From IMG/VR virus record IMGVR_UViG_2541047860_000003, positions 1-34,596 of that record: DNA of 34,596 nucleotides. One strand, 5' to 3'. Within the stretch, counting starts at the first letter, position 1, and each line of letters begins with the position of its first letter. Positions 4,996 to 33,756 of the stretch are shown here, piece by piece. Below the pieces are notes generated by a model. It ran no database searches and was not told the DNA's origin. It saw only the letters and a list, made by a program, of their open reading frames with translations. The stretch comes from a virus. Its lineage: Duplodnaviria > Heunggongvirae > Uroviricota > Caudoviricetes. The translations under genes and the position numbers were made by a program.

Positions 4996-5060
4996 AATAA
5001 GTCCTCACTATATAAAGATATTCAGTGATGAGATAAATAATCAGTTAATTAAAAACGATA

Positions 5061-5423
5061 TTAACGACCTGCTGCGCGGAGTTTTCCGTCAGGTTCACCG
5101 GCAAGAGTCAGCAACTGTCCCTGGTCTTCCTGCAGAATAGTCAGGCGACCACCGCGATTGACATACATCGGCGTTTCGGTGGTGTCTTCTTCGGAAATTT
5201 TCCCGCGGTTAGTCGGGCGAACATATGAGAGTTTGTGTTTGATTTTCACTCGGTTCTCATCAAACGGTTCGATTTCTAGGTTGAGCGAGACCTTACCTTT
5301 GGTTTTCGTGTTCATCACACCGGAAGCGACTTCACTGAGAACTGCGCCGATTTTGGTTTCAAATACGCCGCCGTCCAGCTCCCCGATAAATGCCTGCACA
5401 TCAGTACTGCGTTCGCTAGCCAT
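5061..5423 (-). CDS. YfdP-like small prophage protein
   Basis: Start assigned to internal ATG at 5423 preceded by SD GAGGAG with 7-nt spacer; the longer 226-aa reading extends into a GC-rich hairpin region and has no RBS. Confidence 0.5.
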   Translation of the reverse strand: MASERSTDVQAFIGELDGGVFETKIGAVLSEVASGVMNTKTKGKVSLNLEIEPFDENRVKIKHKLSYVRPTNRGKISEEDTTETPMYVNRGGRLTILQEDQGQLLTLAGEPDGKLRAAGR

Positions 5424-5891
5424 TTTGCTGCTCCTCATCATATCGACCCTGCAAGGTCGGTTAGTTTCTCCACAAAACAGAGAAGAACACCTGCGGTGAC
5501 TGCCGCCCGGATGGATTGGGTTATGAGCCCGTCGTCCGGTGATGCTCTTCTCTGTTTTGTAAAAAGGACGGTACCAGCCGGAAGCAAGGGTACAAGCTGG
5601 TACCGCCAAGACTACACACAGCATAAAGTTGTGGTGCCGGGTGCCTCCCGGTGCCTGGCGAAGGTTGCACACCAGGCGGGTGGGTATCCACAGAAGGTCG
5701 ACTGTCAGCCTCAACCTTAACCCGCGTGCGCTGAGCCGCATTCACCACAACGCTAAGGATTCTCTCTGGTTGAAAATACTTAGCTGTTATGTGCCTGCTT
5801 TTAGCCACATCAGGCGAGGTGGACCTAGTTATTCCCCAACAACAAGGATTCGGTTAATCTGGTTATCCCCAACAACGCAAAAGGAAAAGAA

Positions 5892-6326
5892 ATGTCCGGT
5901 AATATCTATACGCTGTACAAATCCCACTGTGAAAATGTTGGAAAGTATCGGGGCATTGAAATCAGTGGGGTAGTGTCATCAGTCGAAATAAGCAAAGTTG
6001 AATCAAGGGCAACATTACTTACTCTTTTGGACCTTGTCTTACATGAGCACCGGAAGAAATTCGGCACTCCCTATAATCAGTTGAATGGGAAAAAGGCTCT
6101 GGTTCACCTTATTCTGATGAAGCATCACTGGATGCCAAAACAGATTAATGAGATGAAATTTGATGAACTTCTTCTTTCAATTCAGGATGAACTCACACTT
6201 GATAAAATAAGCGTAACCGCCCAGAAATTTTTAGATTATCGAGACTGGAGATCACAAATTCATCACTTTGATGATTTTGACGAAAATGAATGGGATCCTA
6301 ATTTGTCTGCACAATATCTAAAGTAA
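5892..6326 (+). CDS. Hypothetical 144-aa protein (AT-rich cargo gene in immunity region)
   Basis: ATG at 5892 with AAGGA SD; visibly AT-richer than the flanking phage genes; convergent with and overlapping the 68-aa minus-strand gene; no recognisable motif. Confidence 0.5.
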   Translation: MSGNIYTLYKSHCENVGKYRGIEISGVVSSVEISKVESRATLLTLLDLVLHEHRKKFGTPYNQLNGKKALVHLILMKHHWMPKQINEMKFDELLLSIQDELTLDKISVTAQKFLDYRDWRSQIHHFDDFDENEWDPNLSAQYLK

Positions 6327-6504
6327 CATCCTGTGATAAAACCGTGATTTCCTGATCCAGTTTTTTTAAGGAGTCTATTGTTTCCTGTCGATAAGACAGC
6401 ACTTCACGAAGCTGGTTTATAGCTGCCAGCTTCTTTGTCATCCACTCATAAATTTCCTCATCTGTGTAGCCAGGCGCGACGATTTTGGGTTCTGTTTTGT
6501 GCAT
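6298..6504 (-). CDS. Hypothetical 68-aa protein, first gene downstream of predicted PL
   Basis: ATG at 6504 preceded by GAGGAG with 7-nt spacer; predicted coiled-coil-like, not Arg-rich, so not an obvious N homolog. Confidence 0.45.
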   Translation of the reverse strand: MHKTEPKIVAPGYTDEEIYEWMTKKLAAINQLREVLSYRQETIDSLKKLDQEITVLSQDVTLDIVQTN

Positions 6505-6549
6505 TTCACATCTCCTCAAGTTATCAGTTACTTGTTGATGGGGACCAGA

Positions 6550-6561
6550 TTGTTAAAGAGC
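6550..6561 (-). promoter_or_regulatory. boxA-like element (GCTCTTTAACAA) on the leftward early transcript
   Basis: Minus-strand GCTCTTTAACAA matches 11 of 12 positions of the E. coli rrn boxA (TGCTCTTTAACAA) as recalled, 3 nt after a hairpin, between predicted PL and the first leftward gene. Confidence 0.4.
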
Positions 6562-6564
6562 TAA

Positions 6565-6586
6565 GCGTCCTGTAGGGCGCTTTTTT
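6565..6586 (+). terminator. Plus-strand hairpin plus T6 run (putative terminator for the 144-aa gene)
   Basis: GCGTCCTGTAGGGCGC followed by TTTTTT; on the opposite strand the same hairpin immediately precedes an rrn-like boxA. Confidence 0.4.
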
Positions 6587-6754
6587 GTTGCTAACGAATC
6601 ATCCTGGACTTCATATGCCCCAGGCGGCTACTTCGTGGGCGTCCTGCCTGTTCGTTTTTGACATTTACTGACTGCTTACGACACATGCACCGTGTTGCAA
6701 CCAGATTTTGTTGTAATCCTGTAGTTGGTCTGGAACAAAAGATAAAATTAAATT

Positions 6755-6796
6755 GTGAGATATGCAAGTGGTATTTGCGTGATATGCAAGTTGATA
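6755..6796 (-). promoter_or_regulatory. Putative OL/PL operator-promoter region
   Basis: Contains TTGCGTGATA, the same 10-mer present in the cI-cro intergenic region, plus direct repeat ATATGCAAGT twice; lies just beyond the cI terminator. Confidence 0.4.
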
Positions 6797-6800
6797 GGTA

Positions 6801-6823
6801 ATAAAAAGCCACCTTTCGGTGGC
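6801..6823 (-). terminator. Intrinsic terminator downstream of cI
   Basis: Minus-strand hairpin GCCACCGAAAGGTGGC followed by TTTTTAT, about 20 bp after the cI stop. Confidence 0.5.
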
Positions 6824-6842
6824 CGATGGAAGGATATTGAGG

Positions 6843-7535
6843 TTAATTATGTCTCTTAAGGGTTTGAGACTGACTGATTAAGACCTTTCCAAAGACCATG
6901 AATCGGTGTTCGTTTTCGCTAGTAATTCCCCATTCACGGTAAATCTGGTTATCAGAAATCACCAGCAGTTTGTCAGGAATCATTTGAAGTCTTTTAACGT
7001 ATATTTTGTCATCAAAACCAAAGACATATATACCATCACCATCAAACTGATTGATGCTGACATCAACGAAGATGAGATCTCCTGGCTCAATGGTTGGACA
7101 CATACTGTCCCCACGAACGTTGATAACTTTGATGTGATTGGCTGGTCGTCCGCCGAACATTGATACAGCATTATCAGTTCTGTATTCGATGGCATGAATC
7201 ACATCAATGACATCACCGCCCTGGATAAGGCCATTTCCCGCACTGGCACTGATATCCAGCATTTCAATACGGAACACATCCTTCACCTGCGCAACATCCT
7301 CATTATTACTGTTTTTATATACAGTATTACTTTTGTGGGCAGAGGTAAAGAGATCAGCAATATCAACACCTAAGCTCTTGGCAATATTACTCAGTGTTTG
7401 TTCGGTAAATTGTTTTTGCTTACCCGTTTCTAAGCGCGAGATGTTCGCCGCATCTACTCCTATTGCTTCAGCGAGATCGGCGATTTTCATGTTCTTCGCT
7501 TGGCGAAGTTGTCTGACTCGGTTTCCTATGTTCAT
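6843..7535 (-). CDS. cI: CI-type phage repressor (HTH + S24 LexA-like peptidase)
   Basis: N-terminal HTH (QAKNMKIADLAEAIGVDAANISRLETGK), Ala-Gly site (SASAGNG), S24 motifs (GDSM ... KR); divergent from cro across an operator-bearing intergenic region. Confidence 0.9.
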   Translation of the reverse strand: MNIGNRVRQLRQAKNMKIADLAEAIGVDAANISRLETGKQKQFTEQTLSNIAKSLGVDIADLFTSAHKSNTVYKNSNNEDVAQVKDVFRIEMLDISASAGNGLIQGGDVIDVIHAIEYRTDNAVSMFGGRPANHIKVINVRGDSMCPTIEPGDLIFVDVSINQFDGDGIYVFGFDDKIYVKRLQMIPDKLLVISDNQIYREWGITSENEHRFMVFGKVLISQSQTLKRHN

Positions 7536-7632
7536 GCGTTTATTACATTTCTTTATTGCGTGATAAGCAAATCAACTTGCGCAAAATAATTGCGTGAAAT
7601 AACATGCATAACGCGCAATATTTGGAGGGCGT
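7536..7632. promoter_or_regulatory. OR region with divergent PRM/PR promoters
   Basis: 97-bp cI-cro intergenic region carrying four related operator-like sites (TTGCGTGATA, TTGCGCAA, TTGCGTGAAAT, ACGCGCAAT). Confidence 0.6.
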
Positions 7633-7893
7633 ATGCAATCACCATTACGAAATGTGCGTAAGGCGCATGGTTTCACTTTGCAGCATGTTGCTGCGGGTGT
7701 TCAAGTCAATCCAGCGACGTTGAGTCGTATTGAGAGGCTGGAGCAGATTCCATCTATCGAGCTTGCAGAACGTTTAGCCAATTTTTTTAAGGGTGAAGTC
7801 AGCGAAATGCAGATTCTTTATCCGGCACGTTTTCAATCTAGCCAAAACCAGAATGGGTTTAAACCACAGGAACAGGAGGTGAACCGTGGGTAA
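7633..7893 (+). CDS. cro: Cro-like HTH regulator
   Basis: 86-aa ORF with HTH (TLQHVAAGVQVNPATLSRIE), GGAGG SD, divergent from cI. Confidence 0.75.
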   Translation: MQSPLRNVRKAHGFTLQHVAAGVQVNPATLSRIERLEQIPSIELAERLANFFKGEVSEMQILYPARFQSSQNQNGFKPQEQEVNRG

Positions 7894-8437
7894 GCATCAC
7901 TGGAAAGTAGAAAAACAGCCTGAGTGGTACGTGAAAGCTGTCAGAAAAACTATCGCAGCGTTGCCGGGGGGGTACGCTGAAGCTGCTGACTGGCTGGATG
8001 TAACAGAGCACGCATTATTTAACCGCCTTCGTGCCGATGGCGATCAGATTTTCCCGCTGGGATGGGCAATGATTTTGCAACGTGCTGGTGGAACTCACTT
8101 CATTGCTGACGCTGTGGCGCAGTCTGCAAATGGCGTCTTTGTGTCTCTTCCTGATGTCGAGGATGTGGACAACGCCGATATCAACCAACGCCTGCTGGAA
8201 GTCATTGAACAGATCGGCAGTTATTCAAAACAGATTCGTTCAGCAATTGAAGACGGTGTAGTGGAACCGCATGAGAAGACAGCAATTAACGATGAGCTGT
8301 ACCTCTCAATTTCGAAGCTGCAGGAGCATGCAGCTCTGGTCTACAAAATCTTTTGCGTTTCAGAAAGTAGTGACGCCCGCGAGTGTGCAGCTCCGGGCGC
8401 CGTGGCGTGTCGTGACTGTGGAGAAACTAACGCATGA
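7886..8437 (+). CDS. CII-like lysogeny regulator (phage 186 CII/CP76-type, by position and size)
   Basis: 183-aa ORF with GTG start after AGGAGG SD, immediately after cro; family assignment from memory only. Confidence 0.45.
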
Positions 8438-8612
8438 ACAGTTTAACAACACACTACCGTCGCTCGCAACTGATTGCGCTTCCTGTACCGGGTGGAAAAG
8501 CGAAGGTGGAGTATTGCTATGCAGTAAATGTACCAGGTGACAGGGAAATTGTAACCCACAGCTTTGCAGAGTGGGCTGTGGGTGATTTCAACCGGCAGAA
8601 GGAGACAGTCCT

Positions 8613-8792
8613 TTGCGACAAGTTAACCGCTGGTTCAAAGATCACTACGGAGTGCCCGTCAGAGTCATTCGTTGGGAGCCGGAAACACAACGTGTTATCT
8701 ACCTCCGCGAAGGCTATGAGCATGAGTGCTTCAGCCCGCTCGAACAGTTTCGTCGTAAATTCAGGGAAATAGAGGTCGGTCATGAGCACTAA
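8613..8792 (+). CDS. DUF4222-like small protein (TTG start)
   Basis: Alternate frame reads ...[52 protein letters not shown], matching the recalled DUF4222 pattern; AAGGAG SD 8 nt upstream of TTG at 8613. Overlaps the listed 8434..8772 ORF in another frame. Confidence 0.35.
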
Positions 8793-9723
8793 ATTAACCG
8801 GCTATGTATGGGATGGTTGCGCTGCATCAGGCATGAAATTATCCAGCGTGGCAATTATGGCCCGCCTGGCTGATTTCAGTAATGACGAAGGTGTGTGCTG
8901 GCCATCAATTGAAACCATTGCCCGCCAGATTGGCGCGGGAATGAGTACCGTCAGAACGGCTATCGCACGGCTGGAAGCAGAAGGCTGGTTAACGCGTAAG
9001 GCGCGTCGCCAGGGTAACCGCAATGCGTCGAATGTTTATCAGCTTAACGTTGCGAAGCTTCAGGCAGCGGCATTTTCTCAACTGTCAGATTCTGACCCGT
9101 CAAAATCTGACGCATCAAAATCTGACCCGTCAAAATTTGATGCGTCGAAATCTGGCAAAAAAGCGGGTTTTCACCCGTCAGAATCTGGCGGGGATCCGTC
9201 AGTAAAATCAAAACATGATCCGTCAGATAAAAAACCTTCTCGTCCGGACGCTTCGCAACCGGACACGCAGACGGCTGAACAGGAGTTTTTAACTCGCCAT
9301 CCTGATGCGGTTGTATTCAGCCCTAAAAAGCGCCAGTGGGGAACGCAGGATGATTTGACCTGCGCACAGTGGCTCTGGAAAAAAATCATCGCCCTGTACG
9401 AGCAGGCCGCCGAATGTGACGGCGAGGTGGTTCGTCCCAAAGAACCGAACTGGACAGCCTGGGCAAACGAAATTCGCCTGATGTGTGTGCAGGATGGTCG
9501 TACTCATAAACAAATCTGCGAGATGTACAGCCGCGTCAGTCGCGATCCGTTCTGGTGCCGTAACGTGCTCAGCCCGTCGAAGCTGCGGGAAAAATGGGAT
9601 GAGCTTTCCCTGCGCTTATCGCCGTCCGTCAGCACGTACACCGAAAAACGCGAAGACCCGTACTTCAAAGCCAGTTACGACAACGTGGACTACAGCCAGA
9701 TCCCGGCAGGATTCAGGGGGTGA
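8782..9723 (+). CDS. Replication initiator, lambda O-like (HTH N-domain, repeat linker)
   Basis: 313-aa ORF; N-terminal winged-helix region (GMSTVRTAIARLEAEGWLTRKAR); internal tandem 15-bp repeats encoding SDPSK/SDASK as in iteron-bearing O-type genes. Confidence 0.7.
   Translation: MSTKLTGYVWDGCAASGMKLSSVAIMARLADFSNDEGVCWPSIETIARQIGAGMSTVRTAIARLEAEGWLTRKARRQGNRNASNVYQLNVAKLQAAAFSQLSDSDPSKSDASKSDPSKFDASKSGKKAGFHPSESGGDPSVKSKHDPSDKKPSRPDASQPDTQTAEQEFLTRHPDAVVFSPKKRQWGTQDDLTCAQWLWKKIIALYEQAAECDGEVVRPKEPNWTAWANEIRLMCVQDGRTHKQICEMYSRVSRDPFWCRNVLSPSKLREKWDELSLRLSPSVSTYTEKREDPYFKASYDNVDYSQIPAGFRG
9091..9150. repeat. Four tandem 15-bp iterons inside the O-like gene (putative phage ori)
   Basis: TCTGACCCGTCAAAA / TCTGACGCATCAAAA / TCTGACCCGTCAAAA / TTTGATGCGTCGAAA in tandem, followed by further CCGTCAG copies and an A-rich stretch to about 9240. 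Confidence 0.5.
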
Positions 9724-9725
9724 TC

Positions 9726-10214
9726 ATGAGTCTTTTGAATGACGTTCAGAAATTCATTGAAGCCCATCCGGGGTGTACTTCCGGAGACATTGCGGATGCT
9801 TTTGCAGGTTACTCACGACAGCGCGTTCTGCAGTCAGCAAGCAAGTTACGTCAGAGTGGGCGTGTGGCTCACCGTTGTGAAGGGGATACACGCAGACATT
9901 TCCCGCGGCTGACTGAGATACCGCAGGAGCCGGAACCGCAACCAGTTCGTGAATCCAGACCTGTGCGCAATTTCTATGTCGGCACTAACGATCCCCGGGT
10001 GATTTTGTGCCTGACCCGCCAGGCGGAAGAACTGGAGTCCAGGGGCTTATACCGTCGTGCTGCAACGGTGTGGATGGCGGCATTCCGTGAAAGCCACTCC
10101 CAGCAAGAGCGAAACAATTTTCTTGCGCGTCGTGAGCGGTGTTTACGGAAAAGCAGCAAGCGCGCTGTATCGGGTGAAGAGTGGTATCTGTCAGGGAATT
10201 ACGTGGGGGCTTAA
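9726..10214 (+). CDS. PerC-like transcriptional regulator
   Basis: C-terminal LESRGLYRRAATVWMAAFRESHSQQERNNFLARRERCLRK resembles the PerC/Pch motif as recalled; stop overlaps the next gene start (TAATG). Confidence 0.45.
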   Translation: MSLLNDVQKFIEAHPGCTSGDIADAFAGYSRQRVLQSASKLRQSGRVAHRCEGDTRRHFPRLTEIPQEPEPQPVRESRPVRNFYVGTNDPRVILCLTRQAEELESRGLYRRAATVWMAAFRESHSQQERNNFLARRERCLRKSSKRAVSGEEWYLSGNYVGA

Positions 10215-10540
10215 TGACGACGTTAACTCAATGCCAGCAGCAGGTGCTGGATATGCTGATTTCTTACCAGAAAGAACGTGGCTTCCCGCCAACCAATCAG
10301 GAGGTGGCTACCATGCTGGGATACCGTTCAGTGAATGCAGCGGTGGAGCATCTTCGCGCACTGGAGAAAAAAGGCGTCATCACGATAAAGCGTGGCGTGG
10401 CCCGGGGCATCACGCTTCATACCGCGGTGAAGGACGACGACAGCGAGGTGGCCGGGATTATCCGCGCACTGCTTGCTGGTGAGGAAAACGCCAGGCTGCG
10501 TGCAGCCCACTGGTTACATGAGAGGGGGCTGAAAGTATGA
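10214..10540 (+). CDS. LexA N-terminal DNA-binding-domain protein (no peptidase domain)
   Basis: TARQQEV/DMLISY...GFPPTNQEVATMLGYRSVNAAVEHLRALEKKGVITIKRGVARGITL aligns with the LexA winged-helix N-domain; the ORF ends after about 108 aa with no S24 domain. Confidence 0.6.
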   Translation: MTTLTQCQQQVLDMLISYQKERGFPPTNQEVATMLGYRSVNAAVEHLRALEKKGVITIKRGVARGITLHTAVKDDDSEVAGIIRALLAGEENARLRAAHWLHERGLKV

Positions 10541-10926
10541 AGCTGATTCTGCCTTTTCCACCCAGCGTGAACACCTACTGGCGACACCCCAACAAAGGGG
10601 CATTTGCTGGTAAGAGCCTGATAAGCGCGGCGGGGCGAAAATTCCAGAGTGCGGCGTGCACAGCAATAGTTGAGCAGTTACGTCGTCTGCCGAAACCAAC
10701 GTCGGCACCTGCTTCAGTGGAGATCGTGTTGTTTCCTCCGGATAACCGGATCCGCGATCTGGACAACTATAACAAGGCGCTGTTTGACGCCCTGACCCAC
10801 GCGGGTGTGTGGGAAGACGACAGTCAGGTGAAAAGAATGCTGGTGGAGTGGGGACCGGTTATCCCGGAAGGGAAGGTCGAGATCACTATCAGTAAGTACG
10901 AGAAAACGGCGGGTGCAGCCGCCTGA
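10537..10926 (+). CDS. rusA: RusA Holliday junction resolvase
   Basis: LPFPPSVNTYWRH...DLDNYNKALFDALTHAGVWEDDSQV matches RusA catalytic-region hallmarks. Confidence 0.85.
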   Translation: MKLILPFPPSVNTYWRHPNKGAFAGKSLISAAGRKFQSAACTAIVEQLRRLPKPTSAPASVEIVLFPPDNRIRDLDNYNKALFDALTHAGVWEDDSQVKRMLVEWGPVIPEGKVEITISKYEKTAGAAA

Positions 10927-10945
10927 TCAAGAGGAGAAACGAAGT

Positions 10946-11743
10946 ATGAATAATCTGATGGTCATTGATGGTATTGAAGTTCGTCGTGATGCTTTTGGGC
11001 GTTACAGCCTGAACGATCTGCACAGGGCTGCCGGTTCTCTGGATAAGCATAAGCCTGCATTCTGGCTCCGCAATGAGCAAACTGAACGTTTAATAAGCGA
11101 GTTGCAGATTTGCAACTCGGTCAATATAGAGCCAGTTAACGTTATTCGTGGCGGAAATAACCAGGGGACGTATGTCTGCAAAGAACTGGTGTATGCCTAT
11201 GCAATGTGGATCAGCCCGTCATTCCATCTGAAGGTGATCCGTACTTTCGACATGGTAACCAGCGCACCGGAAAAATTATCCGGACAGGCTGCTGACAAGA
11301 TGCAGGCTGGTGTGATTCTGCTGGACTTTATGCGCCGGGAATTAAACCTGTCTAACTCTTCAGTGCTTGGGGCCTGTCAGAAACTCCAGGAGGCTGTTGG
11401 CTTACCGAATCTGGCACCGCGCTATGCCATTGATGCTCCTGCTGACGCGCCTGATGGCTCAAGTCGCCCTACGCTGTCGCTGAGTGCACTGCTGAAACAG
11501 TATGGTATCCGCCTTACGGCTAATCAGGCATATCACCAGATGGCGAAGCTGGGGATCGTCGAACAGCGCGAACGATACAGCCGTACAGCGATTAACAACA
11601 TCAAAAAATTCTGGTCGCTGACGGCGAAAGGCTGCATGTTCGGCAAGAACATCACCAGTCCCGCAAATCCGCGCGAGACGCAGCCGCATTTCTTCGAATC
11701 CCGATTCCCTGAGCTGTTAAAGCTGCTCGATACCGTTCATTGA
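10946..11743 (+). CDS. KilA-N domain antirepressor-like protein
   Basis: N-terminal KilA-N-like region (MVIDGIEVRRDAFGRYSLNDLHRAAG...YVCKELVYAYAMWISPSFHLKV); ATG at 10946 after GAGGAG. Confidence 0.65.
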   Translation: MNNLMVIDGIEVRRDAFGRYSLNDLHRAAGSLDKHKPAFWLRNEQTERLISELQICNSVNIEPVNVIRGGNNQGTYVCKELVYAYAMWISPSFHLKVIRTFDMVTSAPEKLSGQAADKMQAGVILLDFMRRELNLSNSSVLGACQKLQEAVGLPNLAPRYAIDAPADAPDGSSRPTLSLSALLKQYGIRLTANQAYHQMAKLGIVEQRERYSRTAINNIKKFWSLTAKGCMFGKNITSPANPRETQPHFFESRFPELLKLLDTVH

Positions 11744-11744
11744 G

Positions 11745-12740
11745 GTGACTGTGAGAGCACTACTGACCCCTGAAATTGCCCCGCGTATGGGGATCGTATT
11801 GTTCAGACCTGGTTCAGAGCTGATGCCCCTGTTTATGCAGGGGCGTGTCCTGCTGGAGCCTGAGCCGGAACGTTATTCATCTTTCGCCAGCGGTGCCGTT
11901 CCGGCGGCATCACAACCGCTGGCGGATGATCCTGCCGTTCGGGCCGTGTTCCGCAATGAGGCAGTGATCCGTCGTGCTGGTGGCGTGGAATGTCTTGAAA
12001 GCTGGTTACTTCGTGAAAAAGGCTGCCAGTGGCCTCATTCCGACTGGCACAGCGAGAACATGACCACAATGCGACACGCTCCGGGTGCAATCCGTCTGTG
12101 CTGGCACTGCGATAACCAGCTGCGCGATCAGTTCACGGAACGGCTGGAATCAATGGCAACGGATAACTGTGCCCGCTGGGTGTTGTCTGTTGTGCGTCGG
12201 GATCTCGGTTTTGATGACAGTCACGTTGTGACAATGCCGGAACTGTGCTGGTGGCTGATTCGTAATGACCTGGCGGATGCCTTACCGGAAAGTGCAGCCC
12301 GTAAGGCACTGAGATTACCGAAGCCTGTTGTGCCGTCTGTCACCCGGGAAAGTGACCTTGTGCCTTCGGTTCCTGCCACCAGCATCATCCAGGATAAGGC
12401 AAAAAAGGTGCTGGCGCTGAAAGTGGATCCGGAGTCGCCGGAGTCTTTTATGTTACGCCCAAAACGTCGCCGCTGGGTTAATGAAAAGTACACGCGCTGG
12501 GTTAAGACACAGCCGTGTGCATGTTGTGGAAAGCCCGCTGATGATCCCCACCACCTGATAGGCCACGGTCAGGGGGGAATGGGTACAAAAGCGCATGACC
12601 TCTTTGTGTTGCCTTTGTGCAGAAAGCATCACGACGAGCTGCATGCGGATACCGTGGCATTTGAAGAGAAGTATGGCTCCCAGCTGGAGCTGATATTTCG
12701 TTTTATCGATCGTGCGCTGGCAATTGGCGTGCTGGCCTGA
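11745..12740 (+). CDS. DUF968-type phage protein with C-terminal HNH-like zinc motif
   Basis: C-terminal CACCGKPADDPHHLIGHGQGGMGTKAHDLFVLPLCRKHHDELH pattern recalled for DUF968 nin-region proteins. Confidence 0.6.
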   Translation: MTVRALLTPEIAPRMGIVLFRPGSELMPLFMQGRVLLEPEPERYSSFASGAVPAASQPLADDPAVRAVFRNEAVIRRAGGVECLESWLLREKGCQWPHSDWHSENMTTMRHAPGAIRLCWHCDNQLRDQFTERLESMATDNCARWVLSVVRRDLGFDDSHVVTMPELCWWLIRNDLADALPESAARKALRLPKPVVPSVTRESDLVPSVPATSIIQDKAKKVLALKVDPESPESFMLRPKRRRWVNEKYTRWVKTQPCACCGKPADDPHHLIGHGQGGMGTKAHDLFVLPLCRKHHDELHADTVAFEEKYGSQLELIFRFIDRALAIGVLA

Positions 12741-12757
12741 TCTTGTGGAGAAAGTTG

Positions 12758-13135
12758 ATGCGTGATATTCAAATGGTTCTGGATCGTTGGGGAGCATGGG
12801 CGGCGAGTGATAGTTCAGGAGTAGACTATTCTCCTATAGCTGCTGGGTTTAAAGGGCTTCTTCCCTATACAAGCAAAACACGTCAGGCATGTTCAGATAG
12901 TGATGCATTAATTATTGAAAGTTGTCTTGCTCGTCTAAGGCAAAAAAGGCCGGACGAACATTCGCTTCTTGTTGCCCATTATCTATACGGTATCTCTAAA
13001 AGAAAGCTCGCCAAGGCTCGTAAAAAGGATGAGAAACTAATACGCATTGAGATACAGATGGCTGAGGGGTTTATTGATGGCTGCCTATCGATGTTGGAAA
13101 TTAGTCTAGAGATGGACCCCGAAGTTAAAGATTGA
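12758..13135 (+). CDS. Late-gene antiterminator Q (QuuD / phage 21-type)
   Basis: MRDIQMVLDRWGAWAASD...IAAGFKGLLPY matches the QuuD-type Q N-terminus as recalled; ATG at 12758 after GGAG SD. Confidence 0.75.
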   Translation: MRDIQMVLDRWGAWAASDSSGVDYSPIAAGFKGLLPYTSKTRQACSDSDALIIESCLARLRQKRPDEHSLLVAHYLYGISKRKLAKARKKDEKLIRIEIQMAEGFIDGCLSMLEISLEMDPEVKD

Positions 13136-13141
13136 TTATTG

Positions 13142-13164
13142 AAGCCCGATTACTCGGGCTTTTG
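13142..13164. terminator. Hairpin terminator shared by Q (+) and the convergent 339-aa gene (-)
   Basis: AAGCCCGA-TTAC-TCGGGCTT followed by TTTG on the plus strand; the 339-aa gene stop codon lies in the loop. Confidence 0.6.
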
Positions 13165-14169
13165 TTCCACATCTCGAACATAGAGAATTACTGCTGACTT
13201 AATGTCACCATCGACGTGTTTTGCGTTAATGCTCAAATGTACAGGCTTTCTTTCCCACTCAGCTCGCTGCAATGCTTCTTTGTTTCCGGATTCATCAAGG
13301 AAAACATCCTGAACTACGCAGGTTAGACGTTGGTCGGTATCTACGCGTCGGACCTTAACTTTGAAACTCTCTGGGTCAGTATTATTGACTTCTTCAATTC
13401 GGTAAATACCATCAATCCTCATTTCTGATGAACGTCTACGAGCATTCGTAACCAACTCTTTCGCCATTTCAGAATCAATAGTAACGCCATCAATTTGAGC
13501 GTTATCTGAACGCACAAAGGATTTGACCATTTGGGTTTTAGCGTCATACGACATACGGTCCATGTTATCGAGAAGTGGTTTTTCCGCAATCATTTCTGAA
13601 ATAACCCGCAGGCGTTTAGTTTCTTGTTCGCTCATGATCTGCATAGTCCGGAGATGTTCTTTCTCTCCATCCTTAGCAATTTCTGCAAGGCGAATATCTT
13701 TGCGGTTGTCCAAGAACCGTTTAAATACTGTTACTCCGCCCCAGATGACTGCTGCGCCGAGAACAGTAAACATGATCTCAGTTGCGTTCATTTTACCAAC
13801 AAGTTCCTGTGTGAGTTTGGTTAAAAAGCCATCAATATTGATTTCTACTATTGAAGAACCTTGTTCTACCGTAACTTCTATTTCTAGGGCATCAAGTTCT
13901 TCTTTGGTCAGTTTGCGGACGTCAGGGACACCGTACTTGGCAAGGGCATATGATTTGTTGATTTGAGCTTGCATTTCAACAAATCCCTTCATAACTGAAG
14001 GTGTTAGCGATCTGTTGAATTTTTCACCGGTTAATCTGATGGTAAGGTTTGGCCATCCGTTGAAACTTAAACTGTCAGGTAAACCATAACCATCAAGATA
14101 GCTTTCAAGCAAATCGAAGGCTTGCTGCTCAGATTCAATGTCTACATGAATCTCATCAAACTTATCCAA
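13150..14169 (-). CDS. Hypothetical 339-aa single-pass membrane protein (reverse-oriented cargo between Q and lysis genes)
   Basis: Long ORF on the opposite strand to all flanking late genes; TTG start preceded by GAGGA with 7-nt spacer; one hydrophobic segment near the middle (ATEIMFTVLGAAVIWGGVTVF); AT-richer than neighbours; no recognisable catalytic motif. Confidence 0.6.
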   Translation of the reverse strand: MDKFDEIHVDIESEQQAFDLLESYLDGYGLPDSLSFNGWPNLTIRLTGEKFNRSLTPSVMKGFVEMQAQINKSYALAKYGVPDVRKLTKEELDALEIEVTVEQGSSIVEINIDGFLTKLTQELVGKMNATEIMFTVLGAAVIWGGVTVFKRFLDNRKDIRLAEIAKDGEKEHLRTMQIMSEQETKRLRVISEMIAEKPLLDNMDRMSYDAKTQMVKSFVRSDNAQIDGVTIDSEMAKELVTNARRRSSEMRIDGIYRIEEVNNTDPESFKVKVRRVDTDQRLTCVVQDVFLDESGNKEALQRAEWERKPVHLSINAKHVDGDIKSAVILYVRDVEQKPE

Positions 14170-28000: not shown

Positions 28001-28269
28001 TGAAAGAGCTTGAGTTAAAGAAACCGATTACTGCTCATGGCGAGACACTCTCCGTACTGGAGTTTGATGAGCCTACCGGGAAGGATGTCCGCGAGCTGGG
28101 GTATCCCTACCAGATGAATCAGGATGAGTCCGTCAGACTTCTGGCGCATGTGGTGTCGAAATACATTGTGCGGCTGGCGAAAGTGCCGCAAAGCTCTGTC
28201 GACCAGATGTCTCCGGCAGACCTGAATGCAGCGGCGTGGCTTGTGGCTGGTTTTTTCCTCCAGGCCTGA
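28000..28269 (+). CDS. Tail assembly chaperone (G-like)
   Basis: 89 aa after the tube; the slippery heptamer T_TTT_TTC sits in its last codons, allowing a -1 shift into the following frame. Confidence 0.55.
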   Translation: MKELELKKPITAHGETLSVLEFDEPTGKDVRELGYPYQMNQDESVRLLAHVVSKYIVRLAKVPQSSVDQMSPADLNAAAWLVAGFFLQA

Positions 28270-29783
28270 CGGCTGAATACCTCACTGATCGCTTCTTTGA
28301 CTGCGCCAGCTACTGGCGCATTAATCCCTTCGAATTGCTGAATTTGCCGTTCAGTAAAGTTGGAGCGAAAGCGCGGATTGCCAGGGTGCTCGATAAGCAT
28401 GGTCTTGTCGGTGATTATCGCGATGTGACCCGATATAGCATTGCCTCTGGTTATCCTTTCGACGGTGATGAGGTGACCGCCGAAATGGCAGAGTGTGAAA
28501 ACCTGTTTTCTGTGCCGGTTGACGTAATGATCACAAAGGTACAGGAAGATAAAGTCAGTGGCGTAGAGGTCGTAAAGGCGTGGAAATCTCTGCCTACCGC
28601 CGAAAATATCCAATGGGTATTTGAGCGCATCGGAGCCATGCCCGCTCGTAACATGATGTCGGCAAAAATTGAGCTTCTCAGCCTGGACGGCTGCAACTCT
28701 GGTGTTAGCGAGGTATCAGCGACCAGCCAGTTATTGAGCGAGTGCGCTCGCCGTGGAGTTCCCGACAAGAACTACGCAGCACACCTGGAATCAATCGCAG
28801 AACGCAATGCGTTTCACCCCATCAATGAGATTCTCAAATTCCGGCAATGGGATGGCAAAAACCGCGTTGCTGATGTGCTAGGCGCTATCAAGACTGATGA
28901 TGACCCATATTCTCATCAAATCCTGCTGAAATGGCTGGCTGGCGCGATTTGCGCCATTGATAGCGGCAGCGTGGCTATTAAGTTTTGCCCGGTCATTCAT
29001 AGCAAGGCCAACAACTGGTACAAGTCGCAGCTACCGGAGCGCCTGTTTAATCTGGTTGAAGGTGCTTTTGGTGGCGCTATCGGCATCCCGGAGCCATCGA
29101 ACAAAGACGACCTGATGAAATCAATTAGCGCCTGGTGTTATGAATTTGGCGAACTGGCTGGAATGACTAAGCGTGACGCAGAGGCTATCAAAAGCTTTAT
29201 CCCGATGAGTGAGGATATTTTCCGGTTGCCGTATGGCCGGTGTAATCTTTCCAAGCCGCGTCAGACGGTGTACATCGGCACAACTAACCGTGATGACTTC
29301 ATTCATGATGAGACAATCGCTACACGCTTCCCGGTTATTAAGCTCGCCTCACCGATTGACATCGAGCGTATCAATAAAGCACTTGGCTACGAGTTCGACG
29401 GCAACAGGGCCGTACTGACTGACCGCGAACAACTGATCCAATTCTGGCTTGAGGTTCGCCAGATGGTTGCAGACGGCCTTAATTACGTTATTGACGGTGA
29501 GTTGCTGGCTATTACCAGAGGGAAGAACAAAGAGTTCGAGTCGAGAACCAGCTATGACACCACGCTGCTTGATACGCTGGCGATGCACGATGGCCGCACA
29601 TATCAGACCACAACGCAGATATGCAATGAAATCGGCGTGCCGGTTGATAAGCGAGTACATGTGGGCAGGGCTCTCAACAAGCTTTCGGATAATGGTGTTA
29701 TTGAAAAGAAAGTGACAGGTGGAGTGGCTTACTACACCTTCCCCACGCGGGTTAACTATTTACCAACCCGAAATCCCGAATAA
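28236..29783 (+). CDS. VirE-like protein with degenerate P-loop and C-terminal winged helix; N-terminus continuous with the chaperone -1 frame (possible fusion)
   Basis: 515-aa ORF; central region ...KSFIPMSEDIFRLPYGRCNLSKPRQTVYIGTTNRDDFIHDETIATRFPVIKL resembles the VirE / primase C-terminal family, but the Walker A position reads HSKANNWYKS; C-terminal 60 aa are similar to the C-terminus of the 118-aa protein at 30441..30797. Confidence 0.45.
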   Translation: MACGWFFPPGLTAEYLTDRFFDCASYWRINPFELLNLPFSKVGAKARIARVLDKHGLVGDYRDVTRYSIASGYPFDGDEVTAEMAECENLFSVPVDVMITKVQEDKVSGVEVVKAWKSLPTAENIQWVFERIGAMPARNMMSAKIELLSLDGCNSGVSEVSATSQLLSECARRGVPDKNYAAHLESIAERNAFHPINEILKFRQWDGKNRVADVLGAIKTDDDPYSHQILLKWLAGAICAIDSGSVAIKFCPVIHSKANNWYKSQLPERLFNLVEGAFGGAIGIPEPSNKDDLMKSISAWCYEFGELAGMTKRDAEAIKSFIPMSEDIFRLPYGRCNLSKPRQTVYIGTTNRDDFIHDETIATRFPVIKLASPIDIERINKALGYEFDGNRAVLTDREQLIQFWLEVRQMVADGLNYVIDGELLAITRGKNKEFESRTSYDTTLLDTLAMHDGRTYQTTTQICNEIGVPVDKRVHVGRALNKLSDNGVIEKKVTGGVAYYTFPTRVNYLPTRNPE

Positions 29784-29799
29784 CCAGAACACAATCCAA

Positions 29800-29824
29800 C
29801 CCTGCTACGGCAGGGTTTTTTTTG
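29800..29824 (+). terminator. Strong intrinsic terminator
   Basis: CCCTGC-TACG-GCAGGG followed by nine T residues. Confidence 0.75.
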
Positions 29825-29920
29825 CCTCGTGATCGTGACTGCTTAGCCAGAAAAGGTCAAAAGAAAGCCACTGGAAAGAAAGTCAAAACCGGCCCCTGCT
29901 ATCCCGCCGCGCTCAGGTGG

Positions 29921-30265
29921 GGTACTCCACCTACTCCCCCTACTGATGTTACTCCACCTTGTTACTCCACCTGTTTAACTGAATGATATTAAATAAGAAA
30001 AACCAAAAGGTGGAGTAGGTGGGGTAAAAAGCCGCAAAAACTCCAGAGATTTAATCAGCGGTAAAAATACAACCACCTATGGGCTATATACTACTTATCT
30101 AATTAAATAATAATTATATATAAAGTTACTCCACCTACTCCCCCTAAAGAAAATAAAGTTAAATATAAACAATATGTTAGCTCATAAAAGGCATTTAATT
30201 TACCCCCCCTTTTACCCCACCTTTACTCCCCCTATGAAACTTACCCCCCCTGATTTACCCCACCT
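29921..30265. repeat. Iteron array with AT-rich region (putative plasmid-type origin)
   Basis: At least 12 copies of the 10-mer TAC(T/C)CC(A/C)CCT in both orientations (29921..29972 direct, 30007..30025 inverted, 30126..30145, 30198..30265) around an AT-rich stretch at 30060..30180. Confidence 0.6.
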
Positions 30266-30385
30266 GATGCAGGAATCTAGCAGGAAAGTTGATAGAAAAG
30301 GCATTTTGTATTTGCGGAAGTGGTATGTAGACGATCCGCTTTCTTTTCCCAGTGGCTTACTTCCACTATCTCTGCAATTCGCTCG

Positions 30386-30414
30386 CGTAGTCTGATGTTG
30401 GTATAATGAACCAT
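30386..30414 (+). promoter_or_regulatory. Sigma70-type promoter with extended -10 (TGgTATAATGAACC)
   Basis: GTTGGTATAATGAACC about 30 bp upstream of the 118-aa gene; near-identical to GGTGGTATAATGAACC at 31973..31988. Confidence 0.5.
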
Positions 30415-30440
30415 ATAACCAACAATGCAGAGATGCGACG

Positions 30441-30797
30441 ATGACCAATGAAACAAAGGCTTTCACGGTACGAATTCCCGCAGTCGTTTATCAGGCAATT
30501 GCTGAACGGGCAAAAAATGAAGGCCGGTCACTCAGCTACATGGTGAGCAATGCGCTCTGCGCGTTCGCTGGCATTGATGACGCCCAGGATGATTACGAAA
30601 CGCTTTTGCTTGAGGCAGTTAATACCGGGTCAAATATAAGGGCGCAGACAGTGACGGAAATTTGCAGCGTTATCGGTGTGGATGCTGCCAGGCGGATTCA
30701 TGTAGGCAAGGCATTGCGAAAACTGGCAAGTGGCGGAGCGGTAGTCATGCGGAACCGCAGCGGGTGCAGAGTCTATAAATTTCCTTCTAGCGTATAA
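30441..30797 (+). CDS. RHH (CopG-like) N-domain plus winged-helix C-domain regulator
   Basis: N-terminal KAFTVRIPAVVYQAIAERAKNEGRSLSYMVSNALCAF is ribbon-helix-helix-like; C-terminus similar to that of the 515-aa protein. Confidence 0.5.
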   Translation: MTNETKAFTVRIPAVVYQAIAERAKNEGRSLSYMVSNALCAFAGIDDAQDDYETLLLEAVNTGSNIRAQTVTEICSVIGVDAARRIHVGKALRKLASGGAVVMRNRSGCRVYKFPSSV

Positions 30798-31024
30798 TGG
30801 GCAACATGAACAAATTCGACAGAGTGAAACGCCTTGAAGCGTTCAAGCCAAAGCAGCATGAAGCTGTTCTATCAATTCTCCGGGAGCGTGCTGACATGCC
30901 GTCAGGCAATGCCGGGGAATGCGTGTTTGCCATTCTCATGAAGAAATATGCTTCGGCACAGCAAAAGCCCGCAGGTATCCAGGCGTCCGGCGGGGAAAAT
31001 TCTTTTCTTCCAGTGGCTAATTGA
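30797..31024 (+). CDS. Hypothetical 75-aa protein
   Basis: ORF start overlaps the preceding stop (TAATGG); no motif recognised. Confidence 0.3.
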   Translation: MGNMNKFDRVKRLEAFKPKQHEAVLSILRERADMPSGNAGECVFAILMKKYASAQQKPAGIQASGGENSFLPVAN

Positions 31025-31056
31025 CAGAATAACCCAACGGCAAAGTTGAGGCGTGT

Positions 31057-31512
31057 ATGAAAGACAATACCGTAAATGACGCACCTGATAACGAGCAGCC
31101 CGATATCGAACGTGATAAGCGGGGGCGGTTTACTAAGGGGCAATCAGGAAACCCATCAGGGCGAACCAGAAAGGAGCGCCAGTTATTAACAATGATGGGT
31201 GATGATGCTGACAGCGTGGCGCAAATCGTCATTGATGCGGCAAAGGGCGGTGACATGCAGGCTTGCCGCTTGGTACTTGAAAGGGTGCTTCCCGTCCGCA
31301 AGGCCAGATATGAGGCCGTAGAGTTTGAAATTGATGACACCACACTTGCAGGCTCTGCAAAGTCAATTCTTGCAGCTGTAGCAGGTGGAGATCTGCCACC
31401 AGACGTGGGCGCAATGCTTCTCCAATCAGTAGCTCAAACGGCGAAGATTATCGAGATTGACGAACTTGAGCGGCGAATCGCAGCACTGGAGAAAGGCAAT
31501 GAAACTGAATAA
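31057..31512 (+). CDS. DUF5681-like protein
   Basis: N-terminal KRGRFTKGQSGNPSGRTRKER motif recalled for DUF5681-type plasmid/phage proteins. Confidence 0.4.
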   Translation: MKDNTVNDAPDNEQPDIERDKRGRFTKGQSGNPSGRTRKERQLLTMMGDDADSVAQIVIDAAKGGDMQACRLVLERVLPVRKARYEAVEFEIDDTTLAGSAKSILAAVAGGDLPPDVGAMLLQSVAQTAKIIEIDELERRIAALEKGNETE

Positions 31513-31954
31513 ACGGCTTGAAGCTCTGGAGCAGCGTAGGCCCACGAAGAAGGGCGCAGAGGCTCTCACCGATGAAGAGCTGGCCGCAGCTATCGCCAGG
31601 TTTACACCGGAAGAGATCCGCGCAGCAGAACGGGAGTTATTGCTATGGTTAGGTTAACGCGACGCCTTGAGGTTCTGGAGGAGCAGAGACAGCGTCAGCA
31701 ACCGAAGATCGATTTCCCGCTATATACCATCATTGACAAGCCATCTATACAGACACCCCGCAAGCACTCATTTTCCAATCCTCCCGCTTATCTCTTGGTG
31801 AACTCCTGAAACGAAAAAGCCCCCACATTTCTGTAGGGGCCGTTTCGTCAATCTGCGTTTGATGGTCGGAAGGATGGCCGACAACCTAATTATGCACCGG
31901 CCTGTAAAAATGTACCAGCCTTAAATACAGAAAATCGTAAAAACTTAATCACGA

Positions 31955-31990
31955 TTTTCCGTAAATCATTAACGGTGGTATAATGAACCG
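31955..31990 (+). promoter_or_regulatory. Promoter with extended -10 plus palindromic operator
   Basis: ACAGAAAATCGTAAAAACTTAATCACGATTTTCCGT palindrome followed by GGTGGTATAATGAACC, upstream of the 134-aa gene. Confidence 0.45.
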
Positions 31991-32005
31991 TCAATCCTTC
32001 TTTTA

Positions 32006-32410
32006 ATGGTGATAGCGATGAACGAAGTAGATTCAATTCTGGCCGAGCAGAAAAGAGCCGCAGAACAACGCCGCTTGGCTAATGAGAAGAAGCGCCATCC
32101 ATCCGGCCTGTACGATGCGGGTGATGGGTGGTATGTGAAGCAAATCGAAGAGCTTCACTCCCCGCTGGGTCTCAGTAAGGTGGTTCTGGTAAGCCCTGAT
32201 GATGTTTGTGTGAGATATCAGCGCCAATATGGCAAAGCACTCACCACTGACAAATTGAAGGAATGGAGCAGGGACGGGAACTTCCCGTTGCCGCGCTCTA
32301 TTAATGGGGTTATCGGTTGGGAATCGAATGTTGTGACCAATGGCCTGAATGAACTGAGCAAAGCAGCCGGTCGCGGCTTTACCTGTATCACTCGAGGATT
32401 CGCACGATGA
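32006..32410 (+). CDS. Hypothetical 134-aa protein
   Basis: ORF downstream of the promoter/operator; no motif recognised. Confidence 0.35.
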   Translation: MVIAMNEVDSILAEQKRAAEQRRLANEKKRHPSGLYDAGDGWYVKQIEELHSPLGLSKVVLVSPDDVCVRYQRQYGKALTTDKLKEWSRDGNFPLPRSINGVIGWESNVVTNGLNELSKAAGRGFTCITRGFAR

Positions 32411-32613
32411 GCAAAGAATCTGTAATCGCGGCATTGAAAAAAGCGCGTGAAGCGCGTGAAGGCAATATCTTCGGTGGTACTGGGCAGGCCGAATTTAACA
32501 AAGATTTTTATGCTGGCCGCGCCACCAAAACAGATGGTGTCAGTAAGACCGACAGTAACGAGCCGATGAACCAAAAGGCATTTAATGCCCGGTTCTACTC
32601 CGGTAAAGGCTGA
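32407..32613 (+). CDS. Hypothetical 68-aa protein
   Basis: Start overlaps the previous stop (ATGA); Lys/Gly-rich. Confidence 0.3.
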   Translation: MSKESVIAALKKAREAREGNIFGGTGQAEFNKDFYAGRATKTDGVSKTDSNEPMNQKAFNARFYSGKG

Positions 32614-32708
32614 TTATAGGCAATCGGGCATATCGCAATTGCTGCCCGACTGTTTGGATTGTGACTGTTGAGAAATAGACGCAATTCCGCAATTACAGAA
32701 AATCGCAT

Positions 32709-32933
32709 TTACTTATTTCCGTATTTCTCCATTAGTAACTCTCTAACCTCATCGGCAATCTTTGCTCCTCTCTCTGCTGTTTGCATCTTGATGGCACGGT
32801 GCAAAGATTCAGGGATATCAATCGTCAGGCGCTTCATTTTTTCCGTTTCTTCTGGCGCTGTTACGCGGTCACTAATCCAGGCGTCTGCTGATGCTGGCGT
32901 TGGTTTTTTGCCAATTGAAATCTTCTTGCTCAC
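32709..32933 (-). CDS. ParG-like RHH centromere-binding protein
   Basis: 74 aa; GTG start overlapping the parA stop; C-terminal KRLTIDIPESLHRAIKMQTAERGAKIADEVRELL is ribbon-helix-helix-like. Confidence 0.55.
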   Translation of the reverse strand: MSKKISIGKKPTPASADAWISDRVTAPEETEKMKRLTIDIPESLHRAIKMQTAERGAKIADEVRELLMEKYGNK

Positions 32934-33559: not shown

Positions 33560-33703
33560 GTCGACCTCTATCCAGTTTTGGCCAGATGGTACAGAAAATC
33601 GTAAAAACTTAAAAGCGTATCTTCTAATTTACAGATGAATAATCCTGTTAAATACACGCGGCAGCCCTCGTTTTTTCGTCCAGTGGCCATATTAGCGGGC
33701 CAT

Positions 33704-33735
33704 TTGACATGGCTTCAAAACGGCTTCAAAATGAT
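33704..33735 (+). promoter_or_regulatory. Sigma70-like promoter with direct-repeat operator
   Basis: TTGACA at 33704..33709, 17-bp spacer containing GGCTTCAAAA twice, then CAAAAT; upstream of the RHH gene. Confidence 0.4.
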
Positions 33736-33756
33736 GCCATAACCATAGGGGGATTT

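Follow-up and report, generated by a model that had tools for sequence, protein, structure and literature searches.

A probable replication origin within the initiator gene of SfIV-type prophages, and a DnaT-like tail that may bring in DnaB

An origin of replication within the initiator gene is textbook biology for phage lambda, and is ordinary on its own. In lambda, the initiator O's C-terminal domain is the one that interacts with P, and transcription from the early-right promoter assists the origin. Other lambdoid phages with such origins include P22 and phage L (gene 18 in each case; bioRxiv 10.1101/2020.10.05.325894). Here we analyze a 34,596-nucleotide (nt) stretch of the virus record IMGVR_UViG_2541047860_000003 (the window; all coordinates refer to it), which contains an O-like replication gene with a repeat array in its middle. 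We propose that positions 9084-9240 are probably the vegetative replication origin of a temperate prophage of the SfIV/SfII type (CPS-53-like), whose initiator may bring in DnaB via a tail that resembles the end of the host's DnaT. An earlier note on this DNA had suggested a lambda-style origin inside the initiator gene, and our comparisons lend that idea considerable support.

E. coli DnaT is primosomal protein I, of the PriA-PriB-DnaT restart pathway. Its last 20 residues have been described as a flexible tail, for which no partner was given (PMC5778457), and how DnaT recruits DnaB/DnaC was stated to be unknown in 2026 (PMC13377028). An O-like protein with an HTH_36 N-terminus and a DnaT-related C-terminal sequence has also been described: DopC, from the domesticated O-like/P-like pair DopC-DopE of Cellvibrionales and Oceanospirillales (Brezellec et al. 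2017, PMC5509034). However, DopC pairs with a P-like protein, it carries a motif that DnaT has at its C-terminus (PDB 2ru8), and a search for iterons in it found none (PMC5509034). The window's initiator has iterons, a lambda-O-type C-terminal domain, only the tail of DnaT, and no P.

The repeat array lies entirely inside the open reading frame (ORF) 8782-9723 (+ strand), in the part that encodes a linker. Tandem Repeats Finder reported a period of 15 with 4.3 copies and 81% matches at 9091-9154 (and also a period of 30, at 88%). A repeat search extended this to six copies in register, between 9070 and 9192, which are spaced by 15, 15, 15, 15, and 33. The best register of the array is a 13-bp palindrome. 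So the tandem 15-bp repeats of the earlier note are real, but instead of four copies, there are five in tandem plus one:

9084-9156: tandem iterons 1-5, palindromes GTCARAWTCTGAC whose centres are 15 bp apart, separated by variable spacers of 2 bp
9084-9096: iteron 1, GTCAGATTCTGAC
9099-9111: iteron 2, GTCAAAATCTGAC
9114-9126: iteron 3, ATCAAAATCTGAC
9129-9141: iteron 4, GTCAAAATTTGAT
9144-9156: iteron 5, GTCGAAATCTGGC
9157-9176: A-rich/T-rich spacer between iterons 5 and 6, GCAAAAAAGCGGGTTTTCAC
9177-9189: iteron 6, GTCAGAATCTGGC, at a 33-bp offset from iteron 5 that is conserved in phage phiNP
9193-9202 and 9217-9226: two direct repeats GATCCGTCAG, with the AT-rich GTAAAATCAAAACAT between them and ATAAAAAACC after them, to 9240

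The 15-mer ACCCGTCAAAATCTG has seven matches in the window with at most three mismatches, six of them within 9086-9187 and one elsewhere. Across the whole 34.6-kb window and both strands, 1.08 matches are expected by chance, and none of 100 shuffles reached seven. The earlier note had also reported further CCGTCAG-like copies and an A-rich tract. We find CCGTCAR at 9097, 9127, 9175, 9196, and 9220, with the last two falling within the GATCCGTCAG repeats, and A-rich tracts at 9157-9163 and 9228-9235. The GC content is 0.40-0.43 around 9080-9160 and 9180-9260, versus 0.52-0.63 in the flanks. The peptide encoded across the array is SDSDPSKSDASKSDPSKFDASKS, with the repetitive SDPSK/SDASK that the earlier note had read there. 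In most of the orthologues that we aligned (from Escherichia, Citrobacter, Pantoea, and Providencia), the spacer between iterons 5 and 6 retains its arrangement of an A-run followed by TTTTCAC or TTTTGAC.

The segment 9193-9240 is a candidate for the region that unwinds, and it contains two Dam (GATC) sites that are conserved. GATC is not enriched across the window overall; the two GATCs in the origin stand out because they are conserved. These sites (9193-9196 and 9217-9220) are kept in most of the aligned orthologues, from Escherichia to Providencia. Also, a Dam methylase is encoded two genes downstream of the initiator in SfV, mEp460_4F5, Stx2a_1447, and several other loci. By analogy to P1 oriR and oriC, which are sensitive to methylation or SeqA, this origin may be methylation- or SeqA-sensitive. 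We also considered a DnaA-assisted origin, which is unsupported: there are no DnaA boxes (TTWTNCACA) in the window.

The initiator is a mosaic of an HTH_36 winged helix, the iteron-encoded linker, and a C-terminal domain of the lambda O type:

8782-9723, + strand: initiator gene, an ORF of 313 amino acids (aa) that encodes a mosaic O-like replication protein
8782-9075, + strand: N-terminal winged-helix DNA-binding domain (aa 1-98; Pfam and AlphaFold2), the presumed reader of the iterons
9265-9615, + strand: lambda-O-type C-terminal domain (aa 162-278), helical, identified by BLASTP against lambda O and modelled by AlphaFold2 at a predicted local distance difference test (pLDDT) of 87-97
9652-9720, + strand: disordered C-terminal tail EDPYFKASYDNVDYSQIPAGFRG, with low pLDDT in the AlphaFold2 model

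As a whole, the protein matches phrog_391, "replication initiation O-like" (E 1.5e-135). The earlier note's description of the gene as O-like holds for the C-terminal half but not for the DNA-binding half. Residues 70-277 align to residues 78-270 of lambda O (BLASTP, E 3e-25), with the well-conserved part at about aa 176-277. The identification of the C-terminal domain rests on this alignment; no Pfam or NCBIfam family covers the domain. A sequence search of PDB with the C-terminal half found no match, and a Foldseek search of PDB with the model of the C-terminal domain alone found nothing with E below 3. The N-terminal domain matches HTH_36 (aa 23-70, E 4e-11) and otherwise only related winged-helix families in Pfam. 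It has no match to Phage_rep_O (PF04492), a family that is matched by lambda O and by the proteins of loci L071, L050, and L092. AlphaFold2 predicts that the N-terminal domain is a winged helix-turn-helix (pLDDT 71-88). A Foldseek search of PDB with the full model gave only generic winged-helix matches, for this domain; the best of them (E about 2e-3) are winged-helix regulators, of which many belong to the MarR family and several have structures in complex with DNA. The linker at aa 102-160, which is exactly the iteron-encoded peptide, is predicted to be disordered (pLDDT 29-43).

Nearly identical proteins are gp41 of SfIV, an O-family protein of SfII, and the intact form of YfdO from the CPS-53 prophage of E. 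coli K-12. At the nucleotide level, the gene is 98-99.9% identical to those of SfIV, SfII, vB_EcoS-569R4, and PhiR29, and at least 80% of it is found in 1576 of 5426 complete E. coli genomes. CPS-53, which is defective, retains the iteron array, the C-terminal domain, and the DnaT-like tail (nt 234-942 of the query, 98.9% identical; L003 2499-3212). It lacks the DNA-binding domain because a deletion fuses this copy to yfdR; the copy also adjoins yfdN. We considered whether the matches in CPS-53 and in strain OHT76-1, which start at nt 231-234, represent a third type of mosaic, but these are N-terminally truncated pseudogenes, and are therefore uninformative about co-variation.

Four lines of comparative evidence give good support to the view that the repeats function at the DNA level, with the N-terminal domain as their reader. 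The array is found in all 10 orthologues (from Escherichia, Citrobacter, Pantoea, Providencia, and others), at nt 303-470 of the gene, always in a 15-nt register, with 4-10 copies and a nearly invariant core of TCARAATCTG. Synonymous sites in the repeat region are also constrained. Across the 10 orthologues, the codons at conserved residues are identical in 86% of cases within a 60-nt core (iteron 6 plus the GATC repeats), versus 44% in the N-terminal domain (pooled P = 8e-21). Relative to phiNP, a phage of Citrobacter, third codon positions are 49% identical in the region for the N-terminal domain (nt 1-300), but 87% identical in the repeat region (nt 301-459; P = 3.5e-6). Furthermore, the repeats vary with the DNA-binding domain. 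The initiator of phiNP has the same N-terminal domain (87% amino acid identity) and the same array, with spacings of 15, 15, 15, 15, and 33, joined to an unrelated C-terminal domain (Phg_2220_C). That of mEp460_4F5 has the same C-terminal domain, an unrelated N-terminal domain, and, at this place in the gene, five or six copies of a different repeat of 23 bp. We extended this comparison to 80 loci that encode this C-terminal domain (one genome per species, with shared ancestry). These loci have at least seven types of N-terminal domain, each with its own mid-gene tandem repeat:

Period 15: TCTGACCCGTCAAAA
Period 15: CCCCCCAAATATTGA
Period 23
Period 22: TTCCGCAGAATCGCGGAACCCA
Period 21-24
Period 12: CCGCGCATAACG
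Period 21, with true Phage_rep_O N-terminal domains, lambda-like: CCGAAAACGGGAAAAACCTTC

And the annotated iterons of lambda, with which the earlier note had wanted the array compared, lie at the corresponding relative position in O. The N-terminal domain and the iterons thus look like the classical lambdoid specificity module, joined to an exchangeable C-terminal domain. From these comparisons, we think it very likely that the initiator gene contains an iteron origin. The repetitive peptide (SDPSK/SDASK) follows as a by-product from the 15-bp (five-codon) period in a disordered linker.

The likeness to ori-lambda extends to the surroundings. In both, the initiator gene is in the early-right operon after cro and cII; dyad-symmetric repeats lie mid-gene, between the regions for the N- and C-terminal domains, and are followed by an AT-rich stretch, which in the window is only moderately AT-rich; the iterons are inherited along with the N-terminal domain; and the C-terminal domains are homologous. 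However, the window's N-terminal domain is HTH_36 instead of Phage_rep_O, and its six 13-bp sites have a strict 15-bp period, while lambda has four annotated 18-bp sites that are 20-24 bp apart. Also, the window has no P gene, and the initiator's tail is DnaT-like, unlike the W-rich DLTNTDWIYGVDL of lambda O.

Could the repeats instead be just a slippage-prone, low-complexity disordered linker, (SD[PA]SK)n, with no function as DNA? The predicted disorder of the linker fits this idea, as do the variation in copy number among orthologues and a period of whole codons. But it does not explain why synonymous sites are strongly conserved in exactly the repeat stretch, or why each unit is a palindrome in DNA, which would be meaningless for a peptide. 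Nor does it explain why the sequence and period of the repeats track the type of DNA-binding domain and not the C-terminal domain. Relatives with 22- or 23-nt periods encode no peptide repeats, and the same position in lambda holds iterons that are annotated as O-binding sites. We consider a purely protein-level role to be very improbable. Another possibility is that the initiator binds these sites for autoregulation, copy control, or as a transcription roadblock, and that the true origin is elsewhere in the phage. Plasmid iterons also mediate autorepression and handcuffing. However, there is no other repeat cluster in the early region (5000-14000), and the only other cluster in the window (29.9-30.3 kb) is in a separate module that is absent from SfV, SfII, and SfIV. 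Furthermore, next to the iterons is a conserved, moderately AT-rich element with repeats on either side, which is comparable to ori-lambda. A solely regulatory role seems quite unlikely to us.

If 9084-9240 is the origin, then how is the helicase loaded? The earlier note had seen no P- or DnaC-like loader downstream, and we found no homologue of either anywhere in the window (tblastn with lambda P, a P homologue, and DnaC; all E > 1). Similarly, no helicase, loader, or primase is annotated among the 54 genes of the complete genome of SfIV, which was isolated and characterised previously (PMC3851460). The same replication module of one gene is present in SfV, where a PerC-like gene follows it, and SfII likewise has a one-gene module. 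Among the 80 related loci, 37 have a homologue of lambda P that overlaps the end of the initiator gene (Pfam Phage_lambda_P, PF06992, E 3e-58; 39% identical to lambda P), and 2 have a DnaC/IstB-type ATPase. Given that P and DnaC are absent from the window and from the annotation of SfIV, the natural inference, as the earlier note had suggested, is that the phage depends on host functions for loading; from these gene contents, we consider this likely.

The earlier note had recommended a search for an element that interacts with DnaB or DnaC at the end of the O-like protein, and a candidate is the DnaT-like tail. The initiator's last 9 residues, SQIPAGFRG, are identical to DnaT's SQIPPGFRG at 8 of 9 positions (BLASTP). 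The window's protein ends in ...YDNVDYSQIPAGFRG, and close relatives end in ...VNHISEPDTEIPPGFRG, which matches DnaT at 14 of 20 positions (E 1e-7). A profile-profile comparison of the initiator with DnaT (hhalign) gave a probability of 92.5% (E 4.9e-7), over the last 20 residues only. Among the aligned orthologues of DnaT, conservation of the tail is 90% or more (...SEPD.qIPpGFRG). In DnaT as in the initiator, the tail comes after a helical domain and is disordered. Otherwise, the two proteins differ. BLASTP found no similarity to DnaT outside of the tail, and no N-terminal oligomerisation domain or acidic PriB-binding linker; the three-helix domain of DnaT that binds single-stranded DNA (PF17948) had no match in the initiator, even at E up to 10. 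The initiator is instead predicted to be a sequence-specific origin binder. We also considered that the entire C-terminal domain might be DnaT-like or DnaD-like, but the Foldseek search of its model and the tail-only similarity in hhalign led us to reject this. The tail does explain why some pipelines label these phage genes as "Primosomal protein I".

The distribution of the tail is informative, in that the very ends of the initiators sort with the loader. The ending ...(D/E)xx(I/V)PxGFRG is common to the window's protein and some 16 others. Among the 80 loci, a lambda-P gene is downstream in 0 of 16 with the tail, as compared to 37 of 64 others (P = 1e-5, Fisher), although the loci are not phylogenetically independent, so this P value overstates the significance and is indicative only. 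All 37 of the P-coupled initiators end in a W-rich acidic tail instead (HWNSPEAWENTL or NTDWIxG), like that of lambda O. A third class of lambda-O-type C-terminal domains, with no P downstream, has an extra helical extension of about 70 amino acids (for example L018, L021, L023, L024, L049, L051, L064, L066, and others; and L044-L046). Its motifs are ...NRIEEIAxELAGK..AWxxIWxQA... or ...TAARKxA..WNxIWxEC.., and it has neither the P-type W-rich tail nor the DnaT tail. This may be another loader-independent solution.

We also searched a collection of phages with the last 31 residues of DnaT, and the matches were only at the C-termini of initiator-like genes. We inspected six of these regions. 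In three of them, the initiator is followed by a DnaC-like loader (YdaU-YdaV of Rac, O and a DnaC homologue in Gifsy-1, and gp16-gp17 of POCJ13); the other three (SPN1S, HannyBb, and a Klebsiella phage) have no loader. These initiators of Rac, Gifsy-1, and POCJ13 resemble the window's in ending with ...PD..IPPGFRG and in their position after cro/cII, but their own DnaC-like loader lies directly downstream, and in YdaU, the tail is preceded by a DnaT-like domain as well. Within the 80 loci, L037 has a tail-bearing initiator followed by a DnaC-like loader. Overall, the tail is found on three unrelated C-terminal domains: the lambda-O type (the window), the DnaT type (SPN1S and YdaU), and Phg_2220_C (phiNP, which ends in ...DVDYSLPENSGFRS). 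The GFRG tail, judging from this distribution, behaves as a portable peptide module. In SPN1S, an epsilon15-like phage of Salmonella, the initiator (L093 1781-2596) has a complete DnaT C-terminal domain as well as the tail (63% identity over 94 amino acids); YdaU (L091 1228-2016) is 37% identical to DnaT. The host's dnaT and dnaC form one operon (L089/L090), which mirrors ydaU-ydaV. The likeness of SPN1S and YdaU-YdaV to the host genes points to dnaT-dnaC having arisen by domestication of an initiator-loader pair from a phage.

We propose the following mechanism (we infer all of its parts: the binding, the melting, the origin function, and the partner of the tail). The winged-helix domain would bind the six 13-bp palindromes, probably as dimers, to form a complex like the O-some. 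The adjacent AT-rich segment between the GATCCGTCAG repeats would then melt, and by analogy to lambda, transcription from the early-right promoter may assist the opening. Because the phage encodes no P or DnaC, the initiator itself would bring in the host's DnaB. Its likeliest handle would be the disordered tail, ...DYSQIPAGFRG, contacting whatever partner the tail of DnaT contacts. This partner would most plausibly be DnaC or the DnaB-DnaC complex, or alternatively PriA. We favor DnaC or DnaB-DnaC because initiators with the tail are accompanied by DnaC-type loaders or by no loader at all, but not by P, and because the host's dnaT-dnaC operon mirrors ydaU-ydaV; still, we make this assignment tentatively. 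A broader proposal, which we consider somewhat doubtful, is that (D/E)xx(I/V)PxGFRG is a portable loader-recruitment peptide of DnaT and of a large set of phage initiators, which contacts DnaC-type loaders (the host's DnaB-DnaC or a phage paralogue of DnaC). If so, phages of the SfIV/SfV/CPS-53 type would have replaced lambda's handshake of O and P by direct capture of DnaB-DnaC, and dnaT-dnaC would be a domesticated pair of the YdaU-YdaV type.

Several points weigh against our proposals. The AT-rich core beside the iterons, while conserved among orthologues, is only about 15-25 bp, so the AT-rich element is short, and it is only moderately AT-rich. With 15-bp spacing, neighbouring dimers would be on nearly opposite faces of the helix, unlike with lambda's spacing of 20-24 bp, so the architecture of the complex may differ. 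The high identity to phiNP in the repeat region could reflect a recent patch of recombination, but the result from ten orthologues makes this unlikely. The similarity of the tail to DnaT spans only about 9-20 residues, and a cryo-EM study from 2026 proposed that the N-terminal domain of DnaT, not the tail, might recruit DnaB/DnaC (PMC13377028). We found no experimental work on this initiator family in the searchable literature.

The tail might also recruit PriA instead of DnaC or DnaB, so that the host's PriA-PriB-DnaT restart primosome is assembled on the melted origin. The replication of phiX174 and Mu does use host restart primosome assembly, and the IPPGF of the tail is hydrophobic and conserved. 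The C-terminal domain of DnaT docks on PriA via a hydrophobic and conserved interface (PMC13377028), which makes PriA a serious alternative partner, and the site of the DnaT-PriA interaction was listed as unknown in 2017 (PMC5778457). However, the text of the 2026 preprimosome paper does not place the tail in that interface, or say whether the tail joins it (PMC13377028). The frequent pairing of tail-bearing initiators with their own DnaC-like loader fits a direct contact between tail and loader better, and a tail that took the place of DnaT on PriA might hinder DnaT instead of helping it. We consider recruitment via PriA to be unlikely. As for other proteins of the phage, the PerC-like gene (9720-10214) holds the position of P, its GTG start overlaps the stop of the initiator so that they are apparently translationally coupled, and the same gene follows the initiator in SfV, in SfIV, and in 6 of the 80 loci. 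So it might be an unrecognised helicase adaptor. But both Pfam and PHROGs place it with the PerC transcriptional activators, and most tail-bearing initiators precede unrelated genes (such as methylases and DUF977), with no constant partner, which makes an adaptor very unlikely. The window also encodes a VapE/D5-type helicase (28236-29783; Pfam VapE-like_dom, E 6e-33, and PHROG "DNA helicase/primase" families), and the element's own helicase might serve the O-type origin. However, this gene is 18.5 kb away, directly past the end of the homology to SfV/SfI/SfII-type phages (at about 28359), and adjoins its own AT-rich iteron-like cluster and Arc-like and ParA-like genes, which looks like a separate replicon. 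The complete SfIV has the same initiator without such a gene, and we give this idea hardly any credence.

The window is a prophage that is inserted beside a host aldehyde-dehydrogenase gene, and the initiator sits in its early-right operon, downstream of cI-, cro-, and cII-like genes. As the earlier note had read them, the next genes are PerC-like and LexA-like (Pfam), and these are followed by RusA, KilA-N, DUF968, and Q:

1459-2622: integrase
6843-7535, - strand: repressor-like gene, an XRE-family regulator in the annotation of E. coli C10, in the position of cI of SfIV and SfV
7633-7893: cro-like gene
7886-8437: cII-like gene (Phage_CP76)
8613-8792: DUF4222/phrog_1343, 59 aa (E 2e-34)
9720-10214: PerC-like gene
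10181-10540: LexA_DNA_bind gene

Just upstream of the initiator, ORF 8434-8772 (112 aa) matches phrog_1170 (E 5e-70), and its first 63 residues also match phrog_20047. It overlaps the DUF4222 ORF in a different frame, and both are strong matches to PHROGs. In GenBank, 8434-8772 is annotated in SfIV; in E. coli, PGAP annotates only 8613-8792. Alternative gene calls could explain the overlapping pair, as could a frameshift site or a mosaic junction. Between Q and the lysis genes is a 339-aa ORF (13150-14169, - strand) with no match in Pfam, for which E. coli C10 has only the annotation "hypothetical". Located downstream of Q, where cargo is usually found, this ORF is a moron-like insertion.

Homology to the SfV/SfI/SfII-type phages ends just past the genes for the tail tube and assembly. 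In place of genes for the tape measure and the baseplate is a separate replicon-like module (28236-34596), which is not in SfV-type phages:

28236-29783: VapE/D5-type helicase, 515 aa (with the Pfam and PHROG matches given above)
29900-30270: AT-rich cluster of short repeats, TACTCCACC and TTACCCCACCT and inverted copies
30441-30797: Arc-like gene
32930-33559, - strand: ParA-like gene

E. coli C10 has the same arrangement. The module looks like a satellite or plasmid-like element that is fused to a truncated prophage.

In the searchable literature, including the genome paper for SfIV, we found no description of iterons or origins in SfV, SfII, SfIV, or YfdO. We also found no description of a P-less variant of the lambda arrangement with a DnaT-like tail, and nothing relevant about the PGFRG motif. 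Our results put coordinates on the putative origin of a very common family of prophages, which includes SfII and SfIV, the serotype-converting phages of Shigella, and the CPS-53 remnant; SfV has a related one-gene module. In this family, a single phage-encoded replication protein, with no loader, carries the conserved tail of the host's DnaT. That the tail is never found with P, and is paired with DnaC-type loaders or with none, leads to a hypothesis for how P-less lambdoid phages might load DnaB. It also leads to a hypothesis for the role of the conserved tail of DnaT itself: if this is true, then it would be through the tail that DnaT passes the restart primosome on to DnaB-DnaC, a contact that has long been sought.

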